Assembly (NCBI RefSeq): GCF_024502345.1
Contig: NZ_JALDNN010000001.1
Reading direction: 5' to 3' (one strand)
Origin: Escherichia coli
GTDB taxonomy: Bacteria > Pseudomonadota > Gammaproteobacteria > Enterobacterales > Enterobacteriaceae
Length of the DNA: 64,000 bases
Shown: positions 27,140-62,824 of the stretch, piece after piece
How the letters are laid out: each line of letters begins with the position of its first letter
How positions within the stretch are numbered: the stretch's first letter is position 1
Translations under genes and position numbers: made by a program
The notes under the pieces: model-generated
What the model saw: the letters and a program-made list of their open reading frames with translations, nothing else
Databases searched by the model: none
Told to the model about the DNA's origin: nothing

Positions 27140-27180
27140 TCAGTGTATTGGTAGCTAAAAAGCCAGGGGCGGTAGCGTGT
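27140..27180 (+). promoter_or_regulatory. JUMPstart element with ops site (GGCGGTAGCGTG at 27168..27179) in the wza leader
   Basis: ggtagctaaaaagccaggggcggtagcgtg matches the JUMPstart/ops (RfaH recruitment) consensus; lies about 180 bp upstream of wza. Confidence 0.85.
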
Positions 27181-48969: not shown

Positions 48970-50364
48970 ATGCCATTTAAAAAACTCTCCCGACGCACCT
49001 TCCTGACGGCAAGCTCGGCCCTTGCCTTCCTCCATACCCCTTTCGCTCGCGCACTTCCCGCCCGACAAAGCGTTAACATTAACGACTACAACCCTCACGA
49101 CTGGATCGCCTCATTTAAACAAGCCTTCAGCGAAGGGCAAACGGTCGTCGTGCCTGCCGGATTGGTTTGCGACAATATCAACACCGGCATCTTCATTCCT
49201 GCAGGTAAAACGTTACACATCCTTGGAAGCCTGCGCGGCAACGGCAGAGGGCGATTTATCTTACAGGACGGCAGCCAGGTGACAGGGGAGGAGGGCGGCA
49301 GTATGCATAACATCACCCTGGATGTGCGAGGCTCTGACTGCACCATCAAAGGGCTGGCGATGAGCGGCTTTGGCCCGGTAACGCAGATTTATATCGGCGG
49401 CAAAAACAAACGGGTCATGCGTAACCTGACCATCGATAACCTCACTGTCAGCCACGCTAATTACGCCATCTTACGCCAGGGATTTCATAACCAGATTATC
49501 GGTGCCAACATCACCAACTGTAAGTTCAGCGACTTACAGGGGGACGCTATTGAATGGAACGTGGCGATTAACGACAGTGATATTTTGATCTCCGACCATG
49601 TTATCGAGCGCATCAACTGTACCAACGGCAAAATCAACTGGGGCATCGGCATAGGTCTTGCGGGAAGTACCTACGATAACAACTACCCGGAAGACCAGGC
49701 AGTGAAAAACTTTGTCGTGGCGAATATCACGGGATCGGATTGTCGGCAGTTGATCCATGTTGAAAATGGTAAACATTTTGTTATTCGTAATATCAAAGCC
49801 CGCAATATCACGCCGGATTTCAGTAAGAAAGCAGGTATTGATAACGCCACAGTCGCTATTTACGGTTGTGACAATTTCGTGATTGATAATATTGAAATGA
49901 TTAATAGCGCCGGGATGTTAATCGGCTATGGGGTAATTAAAGGCAAATATCTCTCGATACCGCAAAATTTCCGAGTGAATAATATTCAACTGGATAACAC
50001 CCATCTTGCTTATAAATTGCGCGGCATTCAAATCTCCGCCGGGAATGCTGTCTCCTTTGTGGCGCTGACTAACATTGAGATGAAGCGTGCCTCGCTTGAG
50101 CTACACAATAAACCGCAACATCTTTTTATGCGAAATATCAAGGTGATGCAGGAATCCTCAGTTGGACCCGCATTGAGCATGAACTTTGACATGCGCAAAG
50201 ACGTTCGCGGCGTCTTTATGGCGAAAAAAGAAACACTGCTATCTCTTGCAAATGTTCATGCGGTGAATGAAAGAGGACAAAGCTCCGTCGATATCGACAG
50301 GATTAATCACCATATTGTTAATGTGGAAAAGATTAACTTTAGATTGCCAGAACGGAGGGAGTAG
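48970..50364 (+). CDS. wcaM: Colanic acid biosynthesis protein WcaM
   Basis: 464-aa ORF with Tat-like signal ([15 protein letters not shown]). Confidence 0.93.
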
Positions 50365-50521
50365 ATTTGCGACCATTCATAAACTTACTGGATATAATGT
50401 TCTAAAAGATTATAATCCTCACACTAACTGTTAAAGCTGGGGCTGGGCAGCATTGACTACTCAGGGAAGGTACTCATCTTTATCTTGTGTTTCTTACGTA
50501 ACAACCAGACTAAAGTGATTT

Positions 50522-51517
50522 ATGAACGATAACGTTTTGCTCATAGGAGCTTCCGGATTCGTAGGAACCCGACTACTTGAAACGGCAATTGCTGACTTTA
50601 ATATCAAGAACCTGGACAAACAGCAGAGCCACTTTTATCCAGAAATCACACAGATTGGTGATGTTCGTGATCAACAGGCACTCGACCAGGCGTTAGCCGG
50701 TTTTGACACTGTTGTACTACTGGCAGCGGAACACCGCGATGACGTCAGCCCTACTTCTCTCTATTATGATGTCAACGTTCAGGGTACCCGCAATGTGCTG
50801 GCGGCCATGGAAAAAAATGGCGTTAAAAATATCATCTTTACCAGTTCCGTTGCTGTTTATGGTTTGAACAAACACAACCCTGACGAAAACCATCCACACG
50901 ATCCTTTCAACCACTACGGCAAAAGTAAGTGGCAGGCAGAGGAAGTGCTGCGTGAATGGTATAACAAAGCACCAACAGAACGTTCATTAACCATCATCCG
51001 TCCTACCGTTATCTTCGGTGAACGGAACCGCGGTAACGTCTATAACTTGCTGAAACAGATCGCTGGCGGCAAGTTTATGATGGTGGGCGCAGGGACTAAC
51101 TATAAGTCCATGGCTTATGTTGGAAACATTGTTGAGTTTATCAAGTACAAACTGAAGAATGTTGCCGCAGGTTATGAGGTTTATAACTACGTTGATAAGC
51201 CAGACCTGAACATGAACCAGTTGGTTGCTGAAGTTGAACAAAGCCTGAACAAAAAGATCCCTTCTATGCACTTGCCTTACCCACTAGGAATGCTGGGTGG
51301 ATATTGCTTTGATATCCTGAGCAAAATTACGGGCAAAAAATACGCTGTCAGCTCTGTGCGCGTGAAAAAATTTTGCGCAACAACACAGTTTGACGCAACG
51401 AAAGTGCATTCTTCAGGTTTTGTGGCACCGTATACGCTGTCGCAAGGTCTGGATCGAACTCTGCAGTATGAATTCGTCCATGCCAAAAAAGACGACATAA
51501 CGTTTGTTTCTGAGTAA
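50522..51517 (+). CDS. gnu: NAD-dependent epimerase of the Z3206 (Gnu/Gne) type; GlcNAc-P-P-Und 4-epimerase candidate
   Basis: 331-aa ORF with Rossmann motif LLIGASGFVGTRLL, between wcaM and galF where K-12 has no gene, as I recall. Confidence 0.7.
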   Translation: MNDNVLLIGASGFVGTRLLETAIADFNIKNLDKQQSHFYPEITQIGDVRDQQALDQALAGFDTVVLLAAEHRDDVSPTSLYYDVNVQGTRNVLAAMEKNGVKNIIFTSSVAVYGLNKHNPDENHPHDPFNHYGKSKWQAEEVLREWYNKAPTERSLTIIRPTVIFGERNRGNVYNLLKQIAGGKFMMVGAGTNYKSMAYVGNIVEFIKYKLKNVAAGYEVYNYVDKPDLNMNQLVAEVEQSLNKKIPSMHLPYPLGMLGGYCFDILSKITGKKYAVSSVRVKKFCATTQFDATKVHSSGFVAPYTLSQGLDRTLQYEFVHAKKDDITFVSE

Positions 51518-51759
51518 TGCAGACGAGTCAGAGAAAAAAGGACCAGGTTGGACTACGATTATTCGGAAAGAGGTACTGATTAAATTATCAGTATGTGGAA
51601 TTCCGAGTAATCCGAGTAACCCAGATGCTGATGGTGTGTAGTGTTATCGTAAGGTTTAATCAAAGTTATGCGGAACTAAGCTTTGGTATATAGCCATACC
51701 GTTTGGCTAACCTATGGCAATAATTTACGCACTATCAGCCACTTAGAGGTAGGAAAATA

Positions 51760-52653
51760 ATGACGAATTTAAAAGCAGTTATACCGGTAGCGGGTCTTGG
51801 GATGCATATGTTGCCTGCCACTAAGGCGATACCCAAAGAGATGCTACCGATCGTCGACAAGCCAATGATTCAGTACATTGTTGACGAGATTGTGGCTGCA
51901 GGGATCAAAGAAATCCTCCTGGTAACTCACGCGTCCAAGAACGCAGTCGAAAACCACTTCGACACCTCCTATGAATTAGAATCTCTCCTTGAACAGCGCG
52001 TGAAGCGTCAACTACTGGCGGAAGTGCAATCTATCTGTCCACCGGGAGTGACCATTATGAACGTGCGTCAGGGCGAACCTTTAGGTTTAGGCCACTCCAT
52101 TTTGTGTGCGCGACCTGCCATTGGTGACAACCCATTTGTCGTGGTACTGCCAGACGTAGTGATCGACGACGCCAGCGCCGACCCGCTGCGTTACAACCTT
52201 GCCGCTATGATTGCGCGCTTCAATGAAACGGGACGCAGCCAGGTGCTGGCAAAACGTATGCCGGGTGATCTCTCTGAATACTCCGTCATTCAGACCAAAG
52301 AACTGCTGGATCGCGAAGGTAAAGTCAGCCGCATTGTTGAATTCATCGAAAAACCGGATCAGCCACAAACGCTGGACTCAGACATCATGGCCGTTGGTCG
52401 CTATGTGCTTTCTGCCGATATTTGGCCGGAACTTGAACGCACTCAACCTGGTGCATGGGGGCGTATTCAGCTAACTGATGCCATTGCCGAACTGGCAAGA
52501 AAACAGTCCGTTGATGCAATGCTGATGACTGGTGACAGCTACGACTGCGGTAAAAAAATGGGGTATATGCAGGCGTTTGTGAAGTATGGACTACGCAACC
52601 TGAAAGAAGGGGCGAAGTTCCGTAAAGGTATTGACAAGCTGTTAAGCGAATAA
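51760..52653 (+). CDS. galF: UTP-glucose-1-phosphate uridylyltransferase-like regulatory subunit GalF
   Basis: 297-aa [46 protein letters not shown]. Confidence 0.96.
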
Positions 52654-52886
52654 TGAAAATCTGACCGAATGTAACGGTTGATAAGACAAATTATAACGGC
52701 AGTGAAGATTCCTGTGGGGAGTAATTTGTTGCGATTACCACTGTCGTTATTCAACTATAAGCATAAAAAAGTTAAATATAATTTGGGGATTTTAAGTATA
52801 TGGAAACGCCTTTGTCTACTGAATAAGTAAAGTATTAACTGTAAGAAAAGCGTGAATGGTGTTCCCTACATAATTTAAAGATATTC

Positions 52887-52925
52887 AGTCTACTGGTAGC
52901 TGTTAAGCCAGGGGCGGTAGCGTGG
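52887..52925 (+). promoter_or_regulatory. JUMPstart element with ops site (GGCGGTAGCGTG at 52913..52924) upstream of the O-antigen cluster
   Basis: cagtctactggtagctgttaagccaggggcggtagcgtg matches the 39-bp JUMPstart consensus closely. Confidence 0.9.
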
Positions 52926-52956
52926 ATAATTTTGAAAAAAAAGATTAGAGCATAAA

Positions 52957-54348
52957 ATGAATTTACTTAAAGGGACAATAATATATACATTGTCAAATTT
53001 GACAATTAAATTTGGTGCAGTTTTACTGCTTCCTATATTAACTCATTTACTTAATCCAGAAGAGTATGGGATGGTAGGATTGTATGTTACACTTACTTCC
53101 TTTCTTACAATAATTTTAGGGCTTGGTTTTTATACACCCTTAATGAAAACTCAGTCGGAGCAGAAAAGCAATATTGCAACTTCAAACCATGTAAATTTTT
53201 GTGCGATAATATTTCTTATCGCAGTTTATTTATTATTGCTTTTATTTCTTTACTTTATATTGAAGTCGTCTTTAGTTATTGATTTGTTGGGGGAGGTGAA
53301 ACTAGATAGCAAATTAATTTATTTGGCAGTTATTGTATCAATGTTTTCTGCAATTAATATTATTATGAACACGTCGTTTAGAATGGACGAGAATTATATA
53401 TTAGTTGCAATATTGTCAATTTTATCTTTTGTGTTATTTTATTCCTCTGCTATAATATTCATTAAACTGTTCAATTATGGAGGCCTTGGCTATATATATG
53501 GCAATTTATTAAGTTCAATAATCATTTTTTTTATAAGTTTCACTTGTTACTATAGAAAATTATCTATTGCATTTTCATGGCACAACGTGAAATTTTTGTG
53601 TAGGAATGGAATTCCAATGGTTTTTGTAGAGTTATCTGATAAAATAATTGAAGCCAGCGATAGATTTATTTTAGTCAGATATATTTCACTATCCTCTTTA
53701 GGCGTATATACACTAGCACTAACGGGATGTAAAGTATTAAACGTAGTTTTCAATTCTTATATTAGCGCTATCCTTCCCTCTATCTATAAAAGCGTTGAAA
53801 GCCGTGAAGATTCAAATTATATAAAAGTGAAGCTTGAGAATGCATACGTGCTTGTAGTGATGATGGTTTTTTTGGGACAGTTGATATCAAAAGAAATAAT
53901 TGACATAATTTTTCCTGCATCATATTCAAATTTATTTTTTGTATTTATATTAGCTTTGCCTGCAATATCTCTTCAATATTATTATTTCTTAGATTTCTAT
54001 TTTCATAGAAGTGAAGATAGCCGATTTATTTTATGTTTTACAATAGCAACCTCGATAATAAATATTATTCTAAACTTAATTTTTGTTCCCAAATATGGAG
54101 TTTATGCATCTCTTTTATCAACGTATATATCCTATTTAATCAGAACGCTAGTAGAAATAAAATTTATAGCGAGACGGTATAAATTGAAGTTTAGTGTGCT
54201 TAACGTCCTTATGGGAAGCTTTGTTCTGTATACTGTTCCTTTATTATATCATTATGGTTATTATACAGTGTTGTTGAGAGTAACTTTGTCAATTGTTTTA
54301 TTTATAGGTATTATTATGTTTTATAAAAAAAGTAGAATATTCAATTAA
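52957..54348 (+). CDS. wzx: O-antigen flippase Wzx
   Basis: 463-aa multi-TM ORF of the polysaccharide-transporter family; first gene after JUMPstart; low GC. Confidence 0.8.
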   Translation: MNLLKGTIIYTLSNLTIKFGAVLLLPILTHLLNPEEYGMVGLYVTLTSFLTIILGLGFYTPLMKTQSEQKSNIATSNHVNFCAIIFLIAVYLLLLLFLYFILKSSLVIDLLGEVKLDSKLIYLAVIVSMFSAINIIMNTSFRMDENYILVAILSILSFVLFYSSAIIFIKLFNYGGLGYIYGNLLSSIIIFFISFTCYYRKLSIAFSWHNVKFLCRNGIPMVFVELSDKIIEASDRFILVRYISLSSLGVYTLALTGCKVLNVVFNSYISAILPSIYKSVESREDSNYIKVKLENAYVLVVMMVFLGQLISKEIIDIIFPASYSNLFFVFILALPAISLQYYYFLDFYFHRSEDSRFILCFTIATSIINIILNLIFVPKYGVYASLLSTYISYLIRTLVEIKFIARRYKLKFSVLNVLMGSFVLYTVPLLYHYGYYTVLLRVTLSIVLFIGIIMFYKKSRIFN

Positions 54349-54361
54349 AAGTGAGTGCTAA

Positions 54362-55546
54362 GTGATCATGGTTAATGCTAAAAATTTTGTATTAATTATT
54401 TTTGATGTAATATGTCTTTTTTTTAATGTTTTTATTTATGTCCCACGTCTAATTATTGGTGTTTTAACAGTAGATAAAACATTGATTATTACATTTCCCT
54501 TGATGTTATCAGTGTTGGCATATAATTTTATTCCACCAGAAACATATGATCTTTACAGACATTATGAAAACTATCAAAATTTTTTGAATAATAATGAAGT
54601 AAGTTTTATCAGGGATTTTTTTCTTTATTTTTTATTTACCGTAGGGAGGTTTTTTGATTTAAATAATGGATTTATAGCATTTGTATCTTGTTATATCCTC
54701 TATTTTTATTGGTTAAAAATATTATACATTAACTTTGATTATAAAGCCAAGAAGAAAAATTTCCCGTTATACTTTCTTATATTTTTTATTACTCCACCTC
54801 TTGTTATATATACAGGCGTTCGATTTTCCACAGGGCTTATATTAACACTGTATGGGATTGTAAACTGGATTCAATTACGGAATGTAAAACTTGGTATAGT
54901 ATATATTATTTGCGGGTTAACAGCCCATTTTTCAATGGCATTGATTGCTTTAATATTTATTTTCACATCATATTTCAATAATATCTTTTCAAATAAATAT
55001 TTAAGGGTTGGGTTCGTATTTTCTGCATTACTTGTAATCTCATTTAATGAACAGTTAGTAAGGTTTTTGACAACAGTAATTGAGTTCATTAATCAGTTAT
55101 TTGATTGGAACTTTATTAGTATCGATACATATATTACTGGTAAATGGGGGCTGGAGAGGGCGCAGGAATTGAATTCAACCGGACAATTAGTATTAGGTAT
55201 ACGTAATTATGGTATGCTCTTTCTAATATTGCTATTTTGCCCACTAATATCTTTTAATAAAAATAAATATACGAACTTTTATTATGTAATGTGTGCTGTT
55301 ACAATATTAGTTTTCCCTTTTACAGCAGTATTTGATAGATATGGAACATTTTTAATTTTTTTTATTGTATACTATCTTAGTACTCTTCAGAAAAAAACTA
55401 ACATTGAAATAATATATTTTTTAACGTTGATTGTATATTTGATTTTCTTTAGAGCAATAGACATCAAAGATAATATTTCCGTATACACTGAAAGCTATAG
55501 TAATATATTGAATCTTTCTTTAATTAAAGTACTGTTAGGAATATAA
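54362..55546 (+). CDS. wzy: O-antigen polymerase Wzy (putative)
   Basis: 394-aa highly hydrophobic multi-TM ORF next to wzx; start may be ATG at 54368. Confidence 0.65.
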   Translation: MIMVNAKNFVLIIFDVICLFFNVFIYVPRLIIGVLTVDKTLIITFPLMLSVLAYNFIPPETYDLYRHYENYQNFLNNNEVSFIRDFFLYFLFTVGRFFDLNNGFIAFVSCYILYFYWLKILYINFDYKAKKKNFPLYFLIFFITPPLVIYTGVRFSTGLILTLYGIVNWIQLRNVKLGIVYIICGLTAHFSMALIALIFIFTSYFNNIFSNKYLRVGFVFSALLVISFNEQLVRFLTTVIEFINQLFDWNFISIDTYITGKWGLERAQELNSTGQLVLGIRNYGMLFLILLFCPLISFNKNKYTNFYYVMCAVTILVFPFTAVFDRYGTFLIFFIVYYLSTLQKKTNIEIIYFLTLIVYLIFFRAIDIKDNISVYTESYSNILNLSLIKVLLGI

Positions 55547-56526
55547 TGCGTAAATATGAAAATAATATTGTTATAAGTGTGATTATTCCAACATATAACA
55601 ATGATAAAACAATCATAGAGGCTATTCAATCTATAGTAAATGTTGAGATGCCTGTGAAATATGAGGTGCTAGTAATAGACGATGGTTCGGTAGATCAGAC
55701 ATCAAATTTAATTGCAGAATATATAAGTCAAAGAAAAGATAATACTATTAAATATTTTTATCAAAAAAACAGTGGTGTAAGCGCTGCGAGAAACGTGGGA
55801 ATAAAAAATGCATTAGGGAAATATGTTCTATTTTTAGACGCAGATGATACATATAGTGAACATGTGTTAAAAGAAATAGATGAAATATTAAGTACTAACA
55901 ATGATATATATGTGTTTTCATATGAAAAACTGAATAATAAAAAGGCTATAATATCAAATAAAAAAAATATTATAACTCATTATAATAGTAAATATGATTT
56001 TTTAAACTCCTATATCTCAGGTGAACTTTTCGGGTGCGTTAGTGTTTGCTCTTGCATTTTTAGTAAAGAATCATTAATTAGCAATAATATTTTTTACGAT
56101 AGTAAAATTGCTTATGGGGAAGATCAATGGTTTTTGATAAATGCTCTCAAGGTTTGCAATGATGTAGAGTTCAGATTAGAACTAAATTTACTGAATTATA
56201 CTTATAATACGGAGTCGGCGACTAATCGTTTCAACCTAAGACGTTTTGACGCGATTACAATGCTAGAAAGAATCAATCAAGAAGCATTTAAGGTTAATCA
56301 AGATATAATTAATGCAAGAATTAATAAAGAATTGGTAAATATAGCAACAATATATACGAAATTCAATTCGTTACAGAAATCAATAATGTTTGTTAATAAC
56401 GTTATACTCCCAAAAATAAAAACGGATAGTGACAAAAGACTATATATGTTCAAAGATATGGTTTTCACTAGATTACCATATTTATATATAATACTTTATA
56501 AACTCTATATTAAGCTATTTAAGTAA
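55546..56526 (+). CDS. Glycosyltransferase family 2
   Basis: 326-aa ORF, ISVIIPTYNN...DDGSVD...LDADD (GT-A, DXD). Confidence 0.8.
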   Translation: MRKYENNIVISVIIPTYNNDKTIIEAIQSIVNVEMPVKYEVLVIDDGSVDQTSNLIAEYISQRKDNTIKYFYQKNSGVSAARNVGIKNALGKYVLFLDADDTYSEHVLKEIDEILSTNNDIYVFSYEKLNNKKAIISNKKNIITHYNSKYDFLNSYISGELFGCVSVCSCIFSKESLISNNIFYDSKIAYGEDQWFLINALKVCNDVEFRLELNLLNYTYNTESATNRFNLRRFDAITMLERINQEAFKVNQDIINARINKELVNIATIYTKFNSLQKSIMFVNNVILPKIKTDSDKRLYMFKDMVFTRLPYLYIILYKLYIKLFK

Positions 56527-56532
56527 ACTAAT

Positions 56533-57714
56533 ATGAATATTCTTATAATTATTCCTAAGTTATGTAACGGTGGGATTGAAAAAATTGCATCAAACTTTTC
56601 TCAATACTTACCAGAAAGATATAATCAATTTGTATATTCAATCATGTCACAAGACTCTTCTTATGATTTTGCGGTAAAGCCCATTATATTAAATAAAAGT
56701 TTAGGTAAAACCTTTATTGGAAAATTGATTACATTTTTCTACAGGCTTCATTTGGCACGTAAAATTATTAGAGAAAATAACATAGATATATGCATTAGTT
56801 TTGGGGAGAGATGTAATATTATAAATATTCTATCTATGGGGAAAACAAAAAAAATCATTACTATACATAGTCAGCTATCTATTGAAAATAAAACAAAAGG
56901 ATTATATGGGAAAGTTACAACACTATTTTCAAAATTGCTTTATAAAAATGCGGATGCTACTGTAGCCGTATCAGAAATAGTGAAGAAGGATGCGTGCGGT
57001 TTATTAAATTTAGATGCGAATAATGTAGAGCTAATTTATAATGGACACGATATTGATTATATCAAAGATAAGTCTACTGATTATAAAGAATTTGATACAC
57101 CTGTGATCGACTTCGTGTCTGTAGGGCGAATTACATATGCTAAAGGGCATTATCATCTATTGAGAAGTCTTGCCATAGTAAAGGAGACGTATCCTAATGT
57201 AATACTATATATTGTTGGCACGTATGAAAAAGATAATTTAAAAAGCATAATTGATCATTTAATTGAGAAATACGATTTATATGATAATGTGATTTTTACC
57301 GGCTTTAGTGACAATCCATATCCTTACATAAAATCAGCAAAGGCTCTTATACTTAGTTCAATTTTTGAAGGTTTTCCAGGCGTTGTTATCGAGAGTATTG
57401 CGCTTGGAACTCCTGTCATAGCGACAGATTGTGGCGGTGCTTCAGAAGTTTTAAAAAGTCCAGATGCCAAAATAAAGAATAATACGGGAGATGTGGAAAT
57501 TACTAAATTAGGAGTACTGTTACCAAAATTCGATGGGATTTATGATATTAATTTGGATTTTTCGCCCACAGAAAAAAAGATGGCGCAAGTTATGAATGAT
57601 ATTATATCAGGGAAGCTGAAATTTAATGAAGACTTTTTAATTACAAAAGCAAACGAATATGATATAGATTCTATGATGAAAAAATATACGGACTTAATAG
57701 AGAAAATAAAATAA
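56533..57714 (+). CDS. Glycosyltransferase family 4 (GT-B)
   Basis: 393-aa ORF with C-terminal EGFPGVVIESIALGTPVIATDCGG motif. Confidence 0.8.
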   Translation: MNILIIIPKLCNGGIEKIASNFSQYLPERYNQFVYSIMSQDSSYDFAVKPIILNKSLGKTFIGKLITFFYRLHLARKIIRENNIDICISFGERCNIINILSMGKTKKIITIHSQLSIENKTKGLYGKVTTLFSKLLYKNADATVAVSEIVKKDACGLLNLDANNVELIYNGHDIDYIKDKSTDYKEFDTPVIDFVSVGRITYAKGHYHLLRSLAIVKETYPNVILYIVGTYEKDNLKSIIDHLIEKYDLYDNVIFTGFSDNPYPYIKSAKALILSSIFEGFPGVVIESIALGTPVIATDCGGASEVLKSPDAKIKNNTGDVEITKLGVLLPKFDGIYDINLDFSPTEKKMAQVMNDIISGKLKFNEDFLITKANEYDIDSMMKKYTDLIEKIK

Positions 57715-58685
57715 TGAAAGAAGCTACTACCTCATATAAATCAATTCATACTATATTAGATTATTTTGGTTGGTCTCATGAAGATTATTGGCATATCAAC
57801 TATAAAGTAAATTATGATTTTTCAAAATTTAATTATTATTGGGATTTGACAAAAAAGTATAATTGGTTTAGTGGACCTTTTGATCAAAATAATATTCCTT
57901 TATATCTTGGCACTGATTCAAAACTGCATTACTCGCCAATTTTTTTAGGGCATTATGCTCTTGGAGCATATCAAGAATATCTATTATCAAATGATAAAAA
58001 AGCATATGACGATTTTATAAGAATAGCGGATTGGTTTGTTGAAAATACAACGACATATAAAAAATGTTCTGGAATATGGATAAATACATACCCAATGTCA
58101 ACTTTTAACTTAAAAGGTAAATGGCAATCGTGTTTAGCCCAGGCAAAAGGTATATCTGTCCTATGTAGAGCTTATTATCTTACGCAAAATTTAAAATATT
58201 TGAAGGTAGCTCTTGACGCATTTGAATCTTTCAAAATATATAAAGAAGAAGGTGGAGTTAAGGTAAGGCATAAAAACGTATTCTTTTGGGAGGAATATCC
58301 AACTATAACCAATTCTATCGTATTGAATGGACATATTTTTGCAGTTTGGGCATTGTACGATTTATCTTTTGTATTAAAAGATAAGAACGAATTTAAGCAA
58401 CAATGGACGGATATTTACAGTTATTATAAAAAATCACTGATTATATTAAAAGAGAATTATAAGTTATGGGATACGCGCTATTGGACTAGATATGATATAT
58501 GGGATAAACATTTTAATGTTTCAAGTTTGTTTTATCATAATCTCCATATTAAACAATTCTATATATTGGCTGTTTTGGGAGATGATGATGATTTCAAGAA
58601 AATTGCTAATAAATGGGCTGGTAAATTAAAAAATCCGCTTTTCAGAATGTATGCGCTTATAAAGAAAGTAGTTTTTAGGTTATGA
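57714..58685 (+). CDS. D-glucuronyl C5-epimerase-like protein (C-terminal domain family), putative hexuronate epimerase
   Basis: 323-aa soluble ORF; AQAKGISVLCRAYYLT and FWEEYPTITNSIVLNGHIFAVWALYDL resemble, from memory, conserved blocks of the glucuronyl C5-epimerase C-terminal domain. Confidence 0.5.
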   Translation: MKEATTSYKSIHTILDYFGWSHEDYWHINYKVNYDFSKFNYYWDLTKKYNWFSGPFDQNNIPLYLGTDSKLHYSPIFLGHYALGAYQEYLLSNDKKAYDDFIRIADWFVENTTTYKKCSGIWINTYPMSTFNLKGKWQSCLAQAKGISVLCRAYYLTQNLKYLKVALDAFESFKIYKEEGGVKVRHKNVFFWEEYPTITNSIVLNGHIFAVWALYDLSFVLKDKNEFKQQWTDIYSYYKKSLIILKENYKLWDTRYWTRYDIWDKHFNVSSLFYHNLHIKQFYILAVLGDDDDFKKIANKWAGKLKNPLFRMYALIKKVVFRL

Positions 58686-59563
58686 TTATGAATGTTATTG
58701 ATAAAATTATTATGGGTTTGAAAAGTATATATTTAAGCTTTCTTTATACAATATATAATTTATTTCTTAATGAAAATAGATTCGAAGAGACAAATGAAGT
58801 ACATGTTGTTGTAAGTTTGACGTGTTTTCCTGGACGTATAAAAAAAGTATATCTTACTTTGGAGTCAATTATGGCTCAACAATATAATAACTTTAAAGTG
58901 GTATTGTACTTGTCTCATGAAGAGTTTCCAAAGGGTTTAGAGGATTTACCTCGTAGTTTAATACGATTACATAAAAGAGGTGTCGATATTAATTTTACGT
59001 GTGAAAATATTCGATCTTATAAGAAGTTACATTATGCGCTGAGTGATTTCCCGGAACTACCTGTAATAACAGCTGATGATGATGTCTTATATCCCTCGCG
59101 ATGGGTAAATGATTTTATGGAGTCACATAAGCTTTTTCATGATGATATATTATTTGCGAGGGGGCATCAGATAACATTTGACCGAAATGGAAATGTTAAA
59201 AAATATATCTCTTTCGGAAAACCAGCTGGATATTCAGCATCAAGTTTATATATTCCTACAGGAGTAAGTGGAATTCTATATCCGCCAGGATGTTTTTTTC
59301 AAGATGTGCAGAATAAAGATATTTTTATGAAGTTGGCACCTAACGCAGATGATATATGGTATAAAGTAATGACTTTGTTAAACGGTCGAAAATCCAGATT
59401 GATCTATAAAAAGCCAATTCATTATCCACCTATCCTTGGCACACAGAAGATCTCCTTGCGTAAACAAAACTTATCGAAACAACATTTAAATAATGATACA
59501 CAATTATTAAATTTAATTGATTATTATTCTATCGAATTAGCTGATTTTAAGAAAAAGGAATAG
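58682..59563 (+). CDS. Putative glycosyltransferase, family unassigned
   Basis: 293-aa ORF with N-terminal hydrophobic segment and DXD-like ITADDDV motif; 4-bp overlap with the upstream gene. Confidence 0.45.
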   Translation: MIMNVIDKIIMGLKSIYLSFLYTIYNLFLNENRFEETNEVHVVVSLTCFPGRIKKVYLTLESIMAQQYNNFKVVLYLSHEEFPKGLEDLPRSLIRLHKRGVDINFTCENIRSYKKLHYALSDFPELPVITADDDVLYPSRWVNDFMESHKLFHDDILFARGHQITFDRNGNVKKYISFGKPAGYSASSLYIPTGVSGILYPPGCFFQDVQNKDIFMKLAPNADDIWYKVMTLLNGRKSRLIYKKPIHYPPILGTQKISLRKQNLSKQHLNNDTQLLNLIDYYSIELADFKKKE

Positions 59564-59568
59564 CTCCT

Positions 59569-60309
59569 ATGGAATTAGTTTCAATTATAATGCCTTGTTT
59601 TAATAATGAAGCAACTATAAAAGAAAGTATTAACAGCGTACTATCTCAAAGTTATAAATGCTGGGAGTTAATTATTATCAATGACAACTCAACAGATGAT
59701 TCACAAAATATTATTAACGACTATGTGAATAGTGATGAAAGAATAAAACTGATTACTAATGAAAAAAATATCGGAGCTGGAGGTAGTAGAAATAAAGGAA
59801 TTGAAATTGCAAATGGAAGATTCATTGCTTTTTTAGATGCAGATGATGTTTGGTTGCCAGAAAAACTTGCAAAACAAATAAAGTTTATGAGAGATGGTAA
59901 TTATGCACTGACATATAGTTATTATCAAAAGTTTGATTCAACTGGATTGGGAGCGATCGTCCGGTCACCTGCTACAACAACCTATAGGAAATTGTTATAC
60001 AGTAATGTTATTGGATGTCTAACAGGAATGTATGATACTGATTTTTTGGGTAAATGCTATATGCCTTTAATTCGTAAACGACAAGATATGGGGCTTTGGT
60101 TGTCAATATTGAAAAAGTGTAATAAAGCATATTGCTTACCTGAAGTTTTGGCATATTATAGAATTGACTCAGGAATGACAAAAAATAAACTTGATGCGGC
60201 AAAATATCAGTGGCGATTTTATAGGGACGTAACTAAACTTAATTTGATTCAATCAAGTTGGTATTTTGTTTGGTATTCAGTTTTAGGTTTGGTAAAGTAC
60301 AAAAAATAA
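59569..60309 (+). CDS. Glycosyltransferase family 2
   Basis: 246-aa ORF, VSIIMPCFNN...NDNSTDDS...LDADD. Confidence 0.8.
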   Translation: MELVSIIMPCFNNEATIKESINSVLSQSYKCWELIIINDNSTDDSQNIINDYVNSDERIKLITNEKNIGAGGSRNKGIEIANGRFIAFLDADDVWLPEKLAKQIKFMRDGNYALTYSYYQKFDSTGLGAIVRSPATTTYRKLLYSNVIGCLTGMYDTDFLGKCYMPLIRKRQDMGLWLSILKKCNKAYCLPEVLAYYRIDSGMTKNKLDAAKYQWRFYRDVTKLNLIQSSWYFVWYSVLGLVKYKK

Positions 60310-60318
60310 TAAGGAGGA

Positions 60319-61332
60319 GTGATGACAATTTTAGTCACTGGTGGTGCTGGATATATTGGCAGTCACACTGTTATTGAATTACAGAAAAATGGTTTTGACG
60401 TGGTAATAGTAGATAATTTTTGTAATTCATCGCCATCGGTTTTAAAAAGAATTGAATTAATTACAGGGAAGGAAATTAAATGTTACGATATTGATCTTCT
60501 GGATTTTAATTCTTTGCAGAAGGTTTTTGTAACTAATAATATTAACTCTGTGATTCATTTTGCATCTTTAAAATCAGTTTCTGAATCACTAATCAAACCA
60601 ACTGAATATTATCATAATAATTTGAGTGGTTGCCTCAATGTCTTGAAAATAATGAAAGAACATAACGTGAATAATTTCATTTTCAGTTCTTCGGCAACTG
60701 TATATGGCAGTAATAACAACAATCCTGTTTCAGAATCTTCATCAGTCGGCACCGCAACAAATCCTTATGGAAAATCCAAGATTTTTTTAGAGCAAATATT
60801 GTCTGATTGCTGTAAATCAAATCCTAATTTAAATGTAACTTGCCTGAGGTATTTCAATCCGGTTGGTGCACATTCTTCAGGTTTGATAGGAGAATCTCCG
60901 AATGGTGTTCCTGCCAATTTAGTTCCATATTTAACTCAGGTTGCTTTAGGTAAATTGCCCGTATTACATATATATGGTAATGACTATGATACCAAGGATG
61001 GGACGGGAGTAAGAGATTTTATTCATGTTACGGATTTAGCTAATGGACACATAGCTGCGCTGAAAAAAATAAATGGTCATAATGGTTTTAAAGTTTATAA
61101 TCTTGGTACTGGGCGAGGTTATAGTGTGTTAGAAGTCGTTAGATGTTTTGAGGCTATTACAGGAAAAAGTATTCCAATCGAATTTTCGCCTCGCAGAGAA
61201 GGTGATATCGCTGAAAGTTGGGCAAATGTTTCCGCAGCAAATTATGAGTTAGAGTGGTTCGCTAAAAAGACATTAACTGATATGTTACGAGATGCATGGA
61301 AATGGCAAACGTTAAATCCAAATGGATTATAA
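60319..61332 (+). CDS. UDP-hexose 4-epimerase, GalE family (UDP-Glc/UDP-GlcNAc 4-epimerase)
   Basis: 337-aa ORF, MTILVTGGAGYIGSHTVIELQKNGFDVVIVDNFCNS, closely GalE-like; last gene of the O-antigen cluster. Confidence 0.85.
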   Translation: MMTILVTGGAGYIGSHTVIELQKNGFDVVIVDNFCNSSPSVLKRIELITGKEIKCYDIDLLDFNSLQKVFVTNNINSVIHFASLKSVSESLIKPTEYYHNNLSGCLNVLKIMKEHNVNNFIFSSSATVYGSNNNNPVSESSSVGTATNPYGKSKIFLEQILSDCCKSNPNLNVTCLRYFNPVGAHSSGLIGESPNGVPANLVPYLTQVALGKLPVLHIYGNDYDTKDGTGVRDFIHVTDLANGHIAALKKINGHNGFKVYNLGTGRGYSVLEVVRCFEAITGKSIPIEFSPRREGDIAESWANVSAANYELEWFAKKTLTDMLRDAWKWQTLNPNGL

Positions 61333-61417
61333 AGATATTTAATTTATATTAAACCTTGCTTATTTAAGATAATGTAAACCGCACCTTTGCGGTAACCCCC
61401 CCTGACAGGAGTAAACA

Positions 61418-62824
61418 ATGTCAAAGCAACAGATCGGCGTCGTCGGTATGGCAGTGATGGGGCGCAACCTTGCGCTCAACATCGAAAGCCGTGGTTATAC
61501 CGTCTCTATTTTCAACCGTTCCCGTGAAAAGACGGAAGAAGTGATTGCCGAAAATCCAGGCAAGAAACTGGTTCCTTACTATACGGTGAAAGAGTTTGTT
61601 GAATCTCTGGAAACGCCTCGTCGCATCCTGTTAATGGTGAAAGCAGGTGCAGGCACGGATGCTGCTATTGATTCTCTCAAGCCATACCTCGATAAAGGCG
61701 ACATCATCATTGATGGTGGTAACACCTTCTTCCAGGACACCATCCGTCGTAACCGTGAGCTTTCTGCAGAAGGCTTTAACTTCATTGGTACCGGTGTCTC
61801 CGGTGGTGAAGAAGGCGCGCTGAAAGGTCCTTCCATTATGCCTGGTGGGCAGAAAGAAGCCTATGAACTGGTTGCGCCGATCCTGACAAAAATCGCCGCA
61901 GTGGCTGAAGACAGCGAACCGTGCGTTACCTATATTGGTGCCGATGGCGCAGGTCACTATGTGAAGATGGTTCACAACGGTATTGAGTACGGCGATATGC
62001 AGCTGATTGCTGAAGCCTATTCTCTGCTTAAAGGTGGTCTGAACCTCACCAACGAAGAACTGGCGCAGACCTTTACCGAGTGGAATAACGGTGAACTGAG
62101 CAGCTACCTGATCGACATTACCAAAGACATCTTCACTAAAAAAGATGAAGACGGTAACTACTTGGTTGATGTGATCCTGGATGAAGCGGCAAACAAAGGT
62201 ACGGGCAAATGGACCAGCCAGAGCGCACTGGATCTCGGCGAACCGCTGTCGCTGATTACCGAGTCTGTGTTTGCACGATACATCTCTTCTCTGAAAGATC
62301 AGCGCGTTGCTGCGTCTAAAGTTCTCTCTGGCCCACAAGCGCAGCTAGCTGGCGACAAGGCTGAGTTCATCGAAAAAGTTCGCCGTGCACTGTATCTGGG
62401 CAAAATCGTTTCTTACGCTCAGGGGTTCTCTCAACTGCGTGCGGCGTCTGAAGAGTACAACTGGGATCTGAACTACGGCGAAATCGCGAAGATTTTCCGT
62501 GCTGGCTGCATCATCCGTGCGCAGTTCCTGCAGAAAATCACCGATGCTTATGCCGAAAATCCGCAAATCGCTAATCTGCTGCTGGCTCCGTACTTCAAGC
62601 AAATTGCCGATGACTACCAGCAGGCGCTGCGTGATGTCGTTGCTTATGCAGTACAGAACGGTATCCCTGTTCCTACCTTCGCTGCTGCGGTTGCCTATTA
62701 CGACAGCTACCGCGCCGCTGTTCTGCCTGCGAACCTGATCCAGGCACAGCGTGACTATTTCGGTGCGCATACTTATAAGCGCATTGATAAAGAAGGTGTG
62801 TTCCATACCGAATGGCTGGATTAA
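61418..62824 (+). CDS. gnd: 6-phosphogluconate dehydrogenase (decarboxylating)
   Basis: 468-aa [33 protein letters not shown]. Confidence 0.97.

Follow-up and report, generated by a model that had tools for sequence, protein, structure and literature searches.

The O112ab O-antigen locus of Escherichia coli probably follows the standard two-epimerase logic of GalNAc-containing O-antigens, in which the first GalNAc of the repeat unit is made through Gnu and the internal GalNAc through Gne. In the model that we propose, WecA, which is encoded elsewhere, would make GlcNAc-PP-Und, and Gnu, an NAD-dependent extended SDR, would then epimerise it to GalNAc-PP-Und as the first sugar. Gne, with a sugar pocket presumably opened by a Ser that replaces Tyr299, would interconvert UDP-GlcNAc and UDP-GalNAc, and the UDP-GalNAc so produced would be used for adding one or more internal GalNAc residues. 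A WbdN-like DxDD GT2, a PglJ-like GT4, a second GT2 and a probable fourth glycosyltransferase would build the pentasaccharide, and a C5-epimerase homologue would account for its L-IdoA.

The window analysed here is a 64,000-nt stretch of E. coli DNA, and all the features described below lie on its plus strand. Positions 50400-61400 match E. coli O112ab:H8 strain Res13-Lact-EA06-22, as well as five further genomes, with 100% identity over the whole 11 kb, and three more, NCTC9112 among them, with 98.5-99.6% identity; RefSeq annotates O112ab-family wzx and wzy in the matching locus. The O-antigen locus in the window is that of E. coli O112ab, and the remainder of the window corresponds to the usual region running from baeSR-mdtABCD to the colanic-acid genes. 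The conserved flanks of the cluster are galF on the left (51760-52653; TIGR01105, 682 bits, above the cut-off, and annotated as galF) and gnd on the right (61418-62824; TIGR00873, 768 bits). Eight co-oriented ORFs lie between them, the first two being wzx (52957-54348; PF01943/PF13440, annotated as an O112ab family O-antigen flippase) and wzy (54362-55546, with the PGAP start at 54368; an EpsG-family match, annotated as an O112ab family O-antigen polymerase). The genes of this cassette have a GC content of 26-34% and a GC3 of 0.22-0.25, compared with 49% GC overall in the window and 50% in galF.

The ORF list contains the two epimerase genes singled out by the first-pass annotation, one at 50522-51517 and the other at 60319-61332. 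The former, gnu, lies directly upstream of galF, its upstream neighbour being wcaM (48970-50364; NF007517, 1027 bits). Its composition (45.1% GC, GC3 0.485) confirms that it stands outside the AT-rich cassette. Starting at an ATG, it encodes a 331-aa protein of the Z3206 type, a GlcNAc-PP-undecaprenol 4-epimerase that is identical at 331 of 331 residues to Gnu of O157:H7 (WP_000999466.1) and shares its RefSeq accession, under the name N-acetyl-alpha-D-glucosaminyl-diphospho-ditrans,octacis-undecaprenol 4-epimerase. The assignment as a Z3206-type enzyme located between wcaM and galF was thus correct. The same protein, without any change, is also found in NCTC9112, in SCU-104 and in one O22 strain. 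The activity cited for enzymes of this type, conversion of GlcNAc-PP-Und into GalNAc-PP-Und, agrees with the work of Rush et al. 2010 as it is summarised in PMC3682973 and PMC7685785.

Gnu belongs to the extended-SDR epimerases (PF01370, E 8.5e-31); it carries GASGFVG at residue 9 and YGKSK at residue 132, and one of its Ser residues aligns with S124 of GalE. At their cut-offs, no NCBIfam equivalog was found for it, and the PDB search returned no close solved structure (best E-value 2e-17). Compared with that of GalE, its substrate-binding domain has no FNPVGAH segment and is enlarged by a 34-residue insertion; residues 250-300, which contain this insertion, have a net charge of +5. A transmembrane segment that might serve as a membrane anchor was sought in Gnu and none was found, the only feature being this basic C-terminal insertion. 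These differences from GalE could fit a substrate carried on another handle, membrane-located undecaprenyl diphosphate as opposed to UDP.

The two epimerase genes also differ in their transcriptional setting. A JUMPstart element (52886-52924; Rfam RF01707, E 1.1e-10, with 53.2 bits where the gathering score is 35) is located after galF and includes the ops sequence (GGCGGTAG, 52913-52920), whose 3′ end lies 37 nt upstream of wzx. Because of this position, gne falls inside an RfaH-type antiterminated operon and gnu falls outside it, with galF in between. Since gnu is upstream of the JUMPstart-headed operon, we propose that it may have a promoter of its own, for which a sigma-70-like candidate (TGGATA-16-TATAAT, 50389-50416; 10/12 in a consensus scan) in the 157-bp wcaM-gnu spacer provides weak evidence. 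Besides JUMPstart, no other RNA or repeat elements were found around gnu and galF, where the repeats are short pairs at chance level.

Which sugar starts the O112ab unit? Among E. coli O-antigens, L-IdoA has been reported only in O112ab (PMC7685785). The O112ab unit is described in PMC3068255 as a pentasaccharide, identical to that of S. boydii 15, and its sugars are apparently L-IdoA, GlcNAc and GalNAc, the figure legend of that paper naming no Gal. The polymerase linkage and the first sugar of O112ab have been classed as ambiguous (PMC10920833), and the supplement of the same study gives a Wzy family for this serogroup. The published rule is that gnu upstream of galF goes with GalNAc as the first sugar, whereas gne within the cluster goes with non-initial GalNAc (PMC7685785). 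This rule fitted 104-105 of 115 serogroups (PMC3682973), a set to which O112ab did not belong. According to this rule, GalNAc is the likely first sugar of the O112ab unit, by analogy with the serogroups that the rule covers, and the GalNAc that the first-pass annotation had placed at the reducing end would therefore be the expected one. That annotation also proposed Gal or GalNAc inside the unit; as the reported O112ab sugars do not include Gal, the relevant function is that of Gne, and the GalNAc half of the proposal is retained while the Gal half is dropped.

O157:H7 provides the closest comparison for Gnu, since the protein (Z3206; EC 5.1.3.26), which Cunneen et al. 2013 place in clade D, has an identical sequence and the gene occupies an identical position between wcaM and galF. 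The two serogroups differ in that the O157 unit contains one GalNAc but lacks GlcNAc, which makes its first sugar unambiguous, whereas O112ab apparently has both. Another explanation would make Gnu a mere passenger, present as part of the conserved wcaM-galF flank that recombines together with O-antigen cassettes; GlcNAc made by WecA would then start the unit and all the GalNAc would come through Gne. Several observations are compatible with it. Apart from the presence of GlcNAc besides GalNAc and the ambiguous classification of the first sugar, gnu is outside both the AT-rich cassette and the JUMPstart operon, and it occurs in 1314 of 5426 complete E. coli genomes (24%), nearly always at 95% identity or more and in many serogroups. 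Carriage by linkage is possible for a gene located outside the cassette in DNA common to 24% of E. coli genomes. In some serogroups gnu occurs although it is not needed, and Cunneen et al. counted about 10 cases, a small number of serogroups, with gnu or gne in excess of need (PMC3682973). However, gnu is present or absent as expected in 104 of the 115 serogroups, and clusters initiated with GlcNAc do not carry it at this site: the O6 locus, for which the first sugar has been assigned as GlcNAc, contains gne and has no gnu between wcaM and galF. Moreover, the gnu ORF is intact and its protein identical in all the O112ab haplotypes inspected, even in the presence of a frameshifted wzx and wzy. 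On balance, we regard carriage of gnu as a passenger as unlikely, and a start with GalNAc made by Gnu remains the preferred reading.

Conservation extends to the second epimerase. Gnu and Gne are each identical at the protein level in three diverged O112ab haplotypes (98.5-100% DNA identity), and the haplotype in which both wzx and wzy are frameshifted retains both proteins unchanged. With about 27% global identity, and 29% over a local match of 197 aa, Gnu and Gne are different enzymes and not duplicates; the two do not group within one common GalE clade, and the initial description of two different epimerases thus holds. A further explanation would take both as nucleotide-sugar 4-epimerases of overlapping specificity, the pair providing redundancy or a higher flux of UDP-GalNAc. 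In its favour, gnu was reportedly assigned by Wang et al. in 2002, in the original description, as a UDP-GlcNAc C4-epimerase. Some enzymes from outside clade A do show such activities in vitro (Cunneen et al., PMC3682973). Nevertheless, we consider redundancy very unlikely, since Rush et al., working with exactly the same protein, found it inactive on UDP-GlcNAc and active on GlcNAc-PP-Und, as reported in PMC3682973, and since the C-terminal substrate domain of Gnu, with the missing segment and the basic insertion mentioned above, is strongly divergent from that of GalE.

The case of O86:B7 also argues against redundancy. Like O112ab, this serogroup has two epimerase genes, gne1 (gnu) upstream of galF and gne2 (gne, of clade A) in the cassette. 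Both are required in O86, gnu for the first GalNAc and gne for the second, and since single knockout of either gene alters the LPS, gnu and gne are not redundant (PMC3682973). The Gne of O86 likewise has Ser as its gatekeeper residue (S306), and its gene differs in position, being the first after galF in O86 and the last before gnd in O112ab. In O22 (strain G3) the arrangement is similar: an identical Gnu is encoded between wcaM and galF, and the final cassette gene ahead of gnd belongs to the GalE clade. The O22 Gne is 59% identical to that of O112ab and has Cys as its gatekeeper where the latter has Ser; wzx, wzy and the glycosyltransferases of O22 are unrelated to their O112ab counterparts.

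The cassette epimerase gene (60319-61332; 34.1% GC, GC3 0.24) is indeed the last ORF before gnd, as first described. It encodes 337 aa if translated from the GTG at 60319; however, an AGGAGG Shine-Dalgarno sequence (60312-60317) lies only 1 nt from this GTG and 4 nt from an ATG at 60322, which is also the start chosen by PGAP and the likely one. The protein had been described as a classical GalE-type epimerase, a description that is right as to family, since it scores 427.6 bits on the TIGR01179 galE profile against a cut-off of 262.3, but misleading as to function, given the Ser at the position of Tyr299 and the location in an O-antigen cluster and not in a gal operon. It shares 51% identity with K-12 GalE and 51-59% with the Gne proteins encoded in the O6, O103 and O22 clusters. 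The catalytic residues S124, Y149 and K153 are kept, as are the pocket residues K84, N179 and N199.

Overall sequence does not separate GalE from Gne (PMC3682973), and attention has been given to position 299 of GalE, described in the Y299C structure paper as a gatekeeper for N-acetylated substrates. The equivalent residues are Tyr299 in GalE, Cys307 in the human enzyme and Ser306 in O86 Gne. The bulky Tyr keeps N-acetylated substrates out of group 1 GalE enzymes, which use UDP-Glc/Gal only, whereas a small residue is typical of Gne enzymes of group 2, which accept UDP-GlcNAc. In the O112ab protein the aligned residue is Ser and in the cluster enzymes of O6, O103 and O22 it is Cys; among the related PDB epimerases shown, 6k0g, 3enk and 7kn1 have Cys or Ser at this position, at which the E. 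coli GalE Y299C mutant aligns too. The change S306Y in Gne of O86:B7 abolishes activity on acetylated substrates, as PMC12820599 relates citing Guo 2006, and PMC3682973 describes exchanges of active-site size between E. coli GalE and the Gne of Y. enterocolitica. The gatekeeper Ser is, taken alone, only suggestive of UDP-GlcNAc acceptance.

Genomic context adds to this. In a species-wide count, 5391 of 5426 E. coli genomes carry a housekeeping galE with at least 95% identity to that of K-12, and because this gene is nearly universal the cassette gene presumably represents an additional epimerase. The K-12 GalE, a group 1 housekeeping enzyme, shares with O112ab Gne the fold-defining motifs and the S124/Y149/K153 triad; it differs in having Tyr299, in the normal GC content of its gene and in its place within the galETK operon, where its neighbours are galT and galK, whereas the AT-rich gne, with Ser at the gatekeeper position, is flanked by a GT2 gene and gnd. 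The gne allele was found at 99% identity or more in only 13 genomes, and all other E. coli matches are below 80% DNA identity; it is an allele of O112ab-type loci only. For such genes Cunneen et al. advise the name gne, and the O112ab protein, ACD37092.1, is included in their set of selected gne/galE sequences (PMC3682973). On the grounds of gatekeeper residue, location and O-antigen composition, the cassette epimerase is best called Gne and not classical GalE, and we infer that UDP-GlcNAc would be its relevant substrate. A true GalE supplying UDP-Gal for a Gal residue of the unit is highly improbable: the protein passes the NCBIfam GalE equivalog and bears the RefSeq/PGAP label UDP-glucose 4-epimerase GalE, and a small gatekeeper residue does not usually prevent the use of UDP-Glc/Gal, but Gal is not among the reported sugars, the gatekeeper is Ser and not Tyr, and a housekeeping galE is already at hand in nearly every E. 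coli.

If GalNAc-PP-Und is the starting point, the putative roles of the remaining cassette enzymes, assigned from similarity, can be arranged around it. The gene preceding gne (59569-60309) encodes a 246-aa GT2 glycosyltransferase of the WbdN/TuaG type with a DxDD motif (TuaG-like, E 1.1e-79). It is 39% identical to WbdN of O157 in a full-length match over 244 aa (E 2e-59), the motif reading DADD. WbdN is a beta-1,3-glucosyltransferase according to Gao et al. 2012 as cited in PMC7685785, and GT2 enzymes of the DxDD group make beta-1,3 links onto GalNAc- or GlcNAc-PP-lipid (PMC4202792). This GT2 is therefore the probable second-step enzyme, extending the first HexNAc-PP-Und by one sugar. Since DxDD enzymes accept either HexNAc-PP-lipid, its homology to WbdN leaves the first sugar unsettled. 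The nearest E. coli relative of this GT2 is found in an unrelated island flanked by IS5, with no gnu in its context, and gives no indication of the first sugar.

Upstream in the cassette are a second GT2 glycosyltransferase of 326 aa (55546-56526; PF00535, E 6.7e-30) and a GT4 glycosyltransferase of 393 aa (56533-57714; PF00534/PF13439). The best NCBIfam match of the latter is PglJ, an alpha-1,4-GalNAc transferase (E 1.4e-34), a match that does not reach the cut-off, and we take this GT4 as a candidate user of UDP-GalNAc, its donor sugar being predicted from that match. A pentasaccharide unit requires four glycosyltransferases besides WecA, and for this reason the fourth is assigned to the hypothetical protein of 293 aa at 58682-59563, which has no match in Pfam or NCBIfam and shows a hydrophobic N-terminus and a DxD-like TADDDV motif; it is probably a glycosyltransferase.

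The gene at 57714-58685 encodes a D-glucuronyl C5-epimerase family protein of 323 aa (PF06662, E 9.2e-36) that PMC3068255 put forward as the candidate C5-epimerase of O112ab. An N-terminal hydrophobic signal was sought in this homologue and none was found. One may speculate that the locus has three epimerases acting at three levels of substrate, with Gne on the nucleotide sugar, Gnu on the lipid-linked monosaccharide, where it would fix GalNAc as the first sugar, and the C5-epimerase homologue on a lipid-linked oligosaccharide. In that case, the C5-epimerase homologue, which lacks a signal, would work after the DxDD GT2 had placed a beta-1,3-linked GlcA on GalNAc-PP-Und, giving a dermatan-like IdoA-GalNAc motif. 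We hold this extension as tentative and rather doubtful. A 2019 review proposes a different route, through UDP-L-IdoA, without experimental data (PMC7685785).

What does the pair of epimerases mean for O112ab? As regards annotation, the gene that PGAP labels GalE would be better named Gne. Gnu itself is used in glycoengineering for the production of GalNAc-initiated lipid-linked glycans, a use to which the window adds nothing. The two-epimerase arrangement is already known biology (Rush 2010; Cunneen 2013; Liu 2019), with O86 and O22 as precedents, and the increment provided here is a modest one, a reasoned prediction that the biological repeat of O112ab, and with it that of S. boydii 15, starts with GalNAc. 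Such a start, if true, would fix the linkage formed by Wzy.

The AT-rich O-antigen cassette of the window contains a gene of the D-glucuronyl C5-epimerase family (57714-58685; PF06662, E 9e-36), which agrees with the L-iduronic acid (L-IdoA) known in O112ab. This gene has already been named as a candidate in O112ab (PMC3068255), and a UDP-L-IdoA route for this serogroup was proposed, without experimental data, in the 2019 review by Liu et al. (PMC7685785). We found no signal peptide in the C5-epimerase family protein; its candidate substrates are UDP-GlcA and a lipid-linked glycan.

The product of the last GT2 gene of the cassette (59569-60309) gives a strong TuaG-like match (E 1e-79) and is also similar to WbdN, its O157 homologue. 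TuaG takes part in teichuronic acid biosynthesis. The nearest other E. coli relative of this gene shares 66.6% DNA identity with it and lies directly 3′ of a nucleotide-sugar dehydrogenase gene. Together, the likeness to TuaG and the position of the relative give a hint that the last GT2 may transfer a uronic acid (GlcA). Immediately upstream, a 293-aa ORF (58682-59563) encodes a protein with a hydrophobic N-terminus and a DxD-like TADDDV motif, which matched no family in Pfam and NCBIfam profile searches; it is probably the fourth glycosyltransferase required by the pentasaccharide unit.

A GT2 related to the last GT2 of O112ab is also carried by a foreign polysaccharide gene cluster of a pig isolate (NZ_CM149864.1, 1427-15196), which is flanked by IS5 and adjoins tRNA-Phe. 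The cluster comprises rfbBA, a Qui/Fuc3NAc-type pathway and a nucleotide-sugar dehydrogenase. A translocase and an EpsG-like polymerase are also encoded there, together with an SDR epimerase that is truncated.

The O22 locus (NZ_CP195958.1) is organised like the window: the gene between wcaM and galF encodes an identical Gnu protein, and the last gene of the cassette belongs to the GalE clade, whereas the gatekeeper residue, aligned with GalE Tyr299, is Cys in O22 and Ser in the window Gne. The ops octamer GGCGGTAG occurs six times in the window (8295, 15683, 26581, 27168, 39841 and 52913) against 1.4 copies expected. Of these, the one at 27168 precedes wza of the colanic-acid operon by about 105 nt, and the one at 52913 is located upstream of wzx.

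Damaged O112ab loci were observed in other genomes. In three of them (NZ_CP142915.1, 11254-13148, and the genomes designated H12 and H13), a deletion of about 6.8 kb extends from wzx into the last GT2 gene, whose 5′ part is lost. All that these genomes retain between galF and gnd is the truncated GT2 and an intact gne, and they are presumably rough derivatives. In strain SCU-104 (NZ_CP053284.1), wzx and wzy are frameshifted and glycosyltransferase genes are broken, whereas Gnu, the C5-epimerase, the last GT2 and Gne are each intact and identical at the protein level. This locus looks like an O-antigen cluster in decay.
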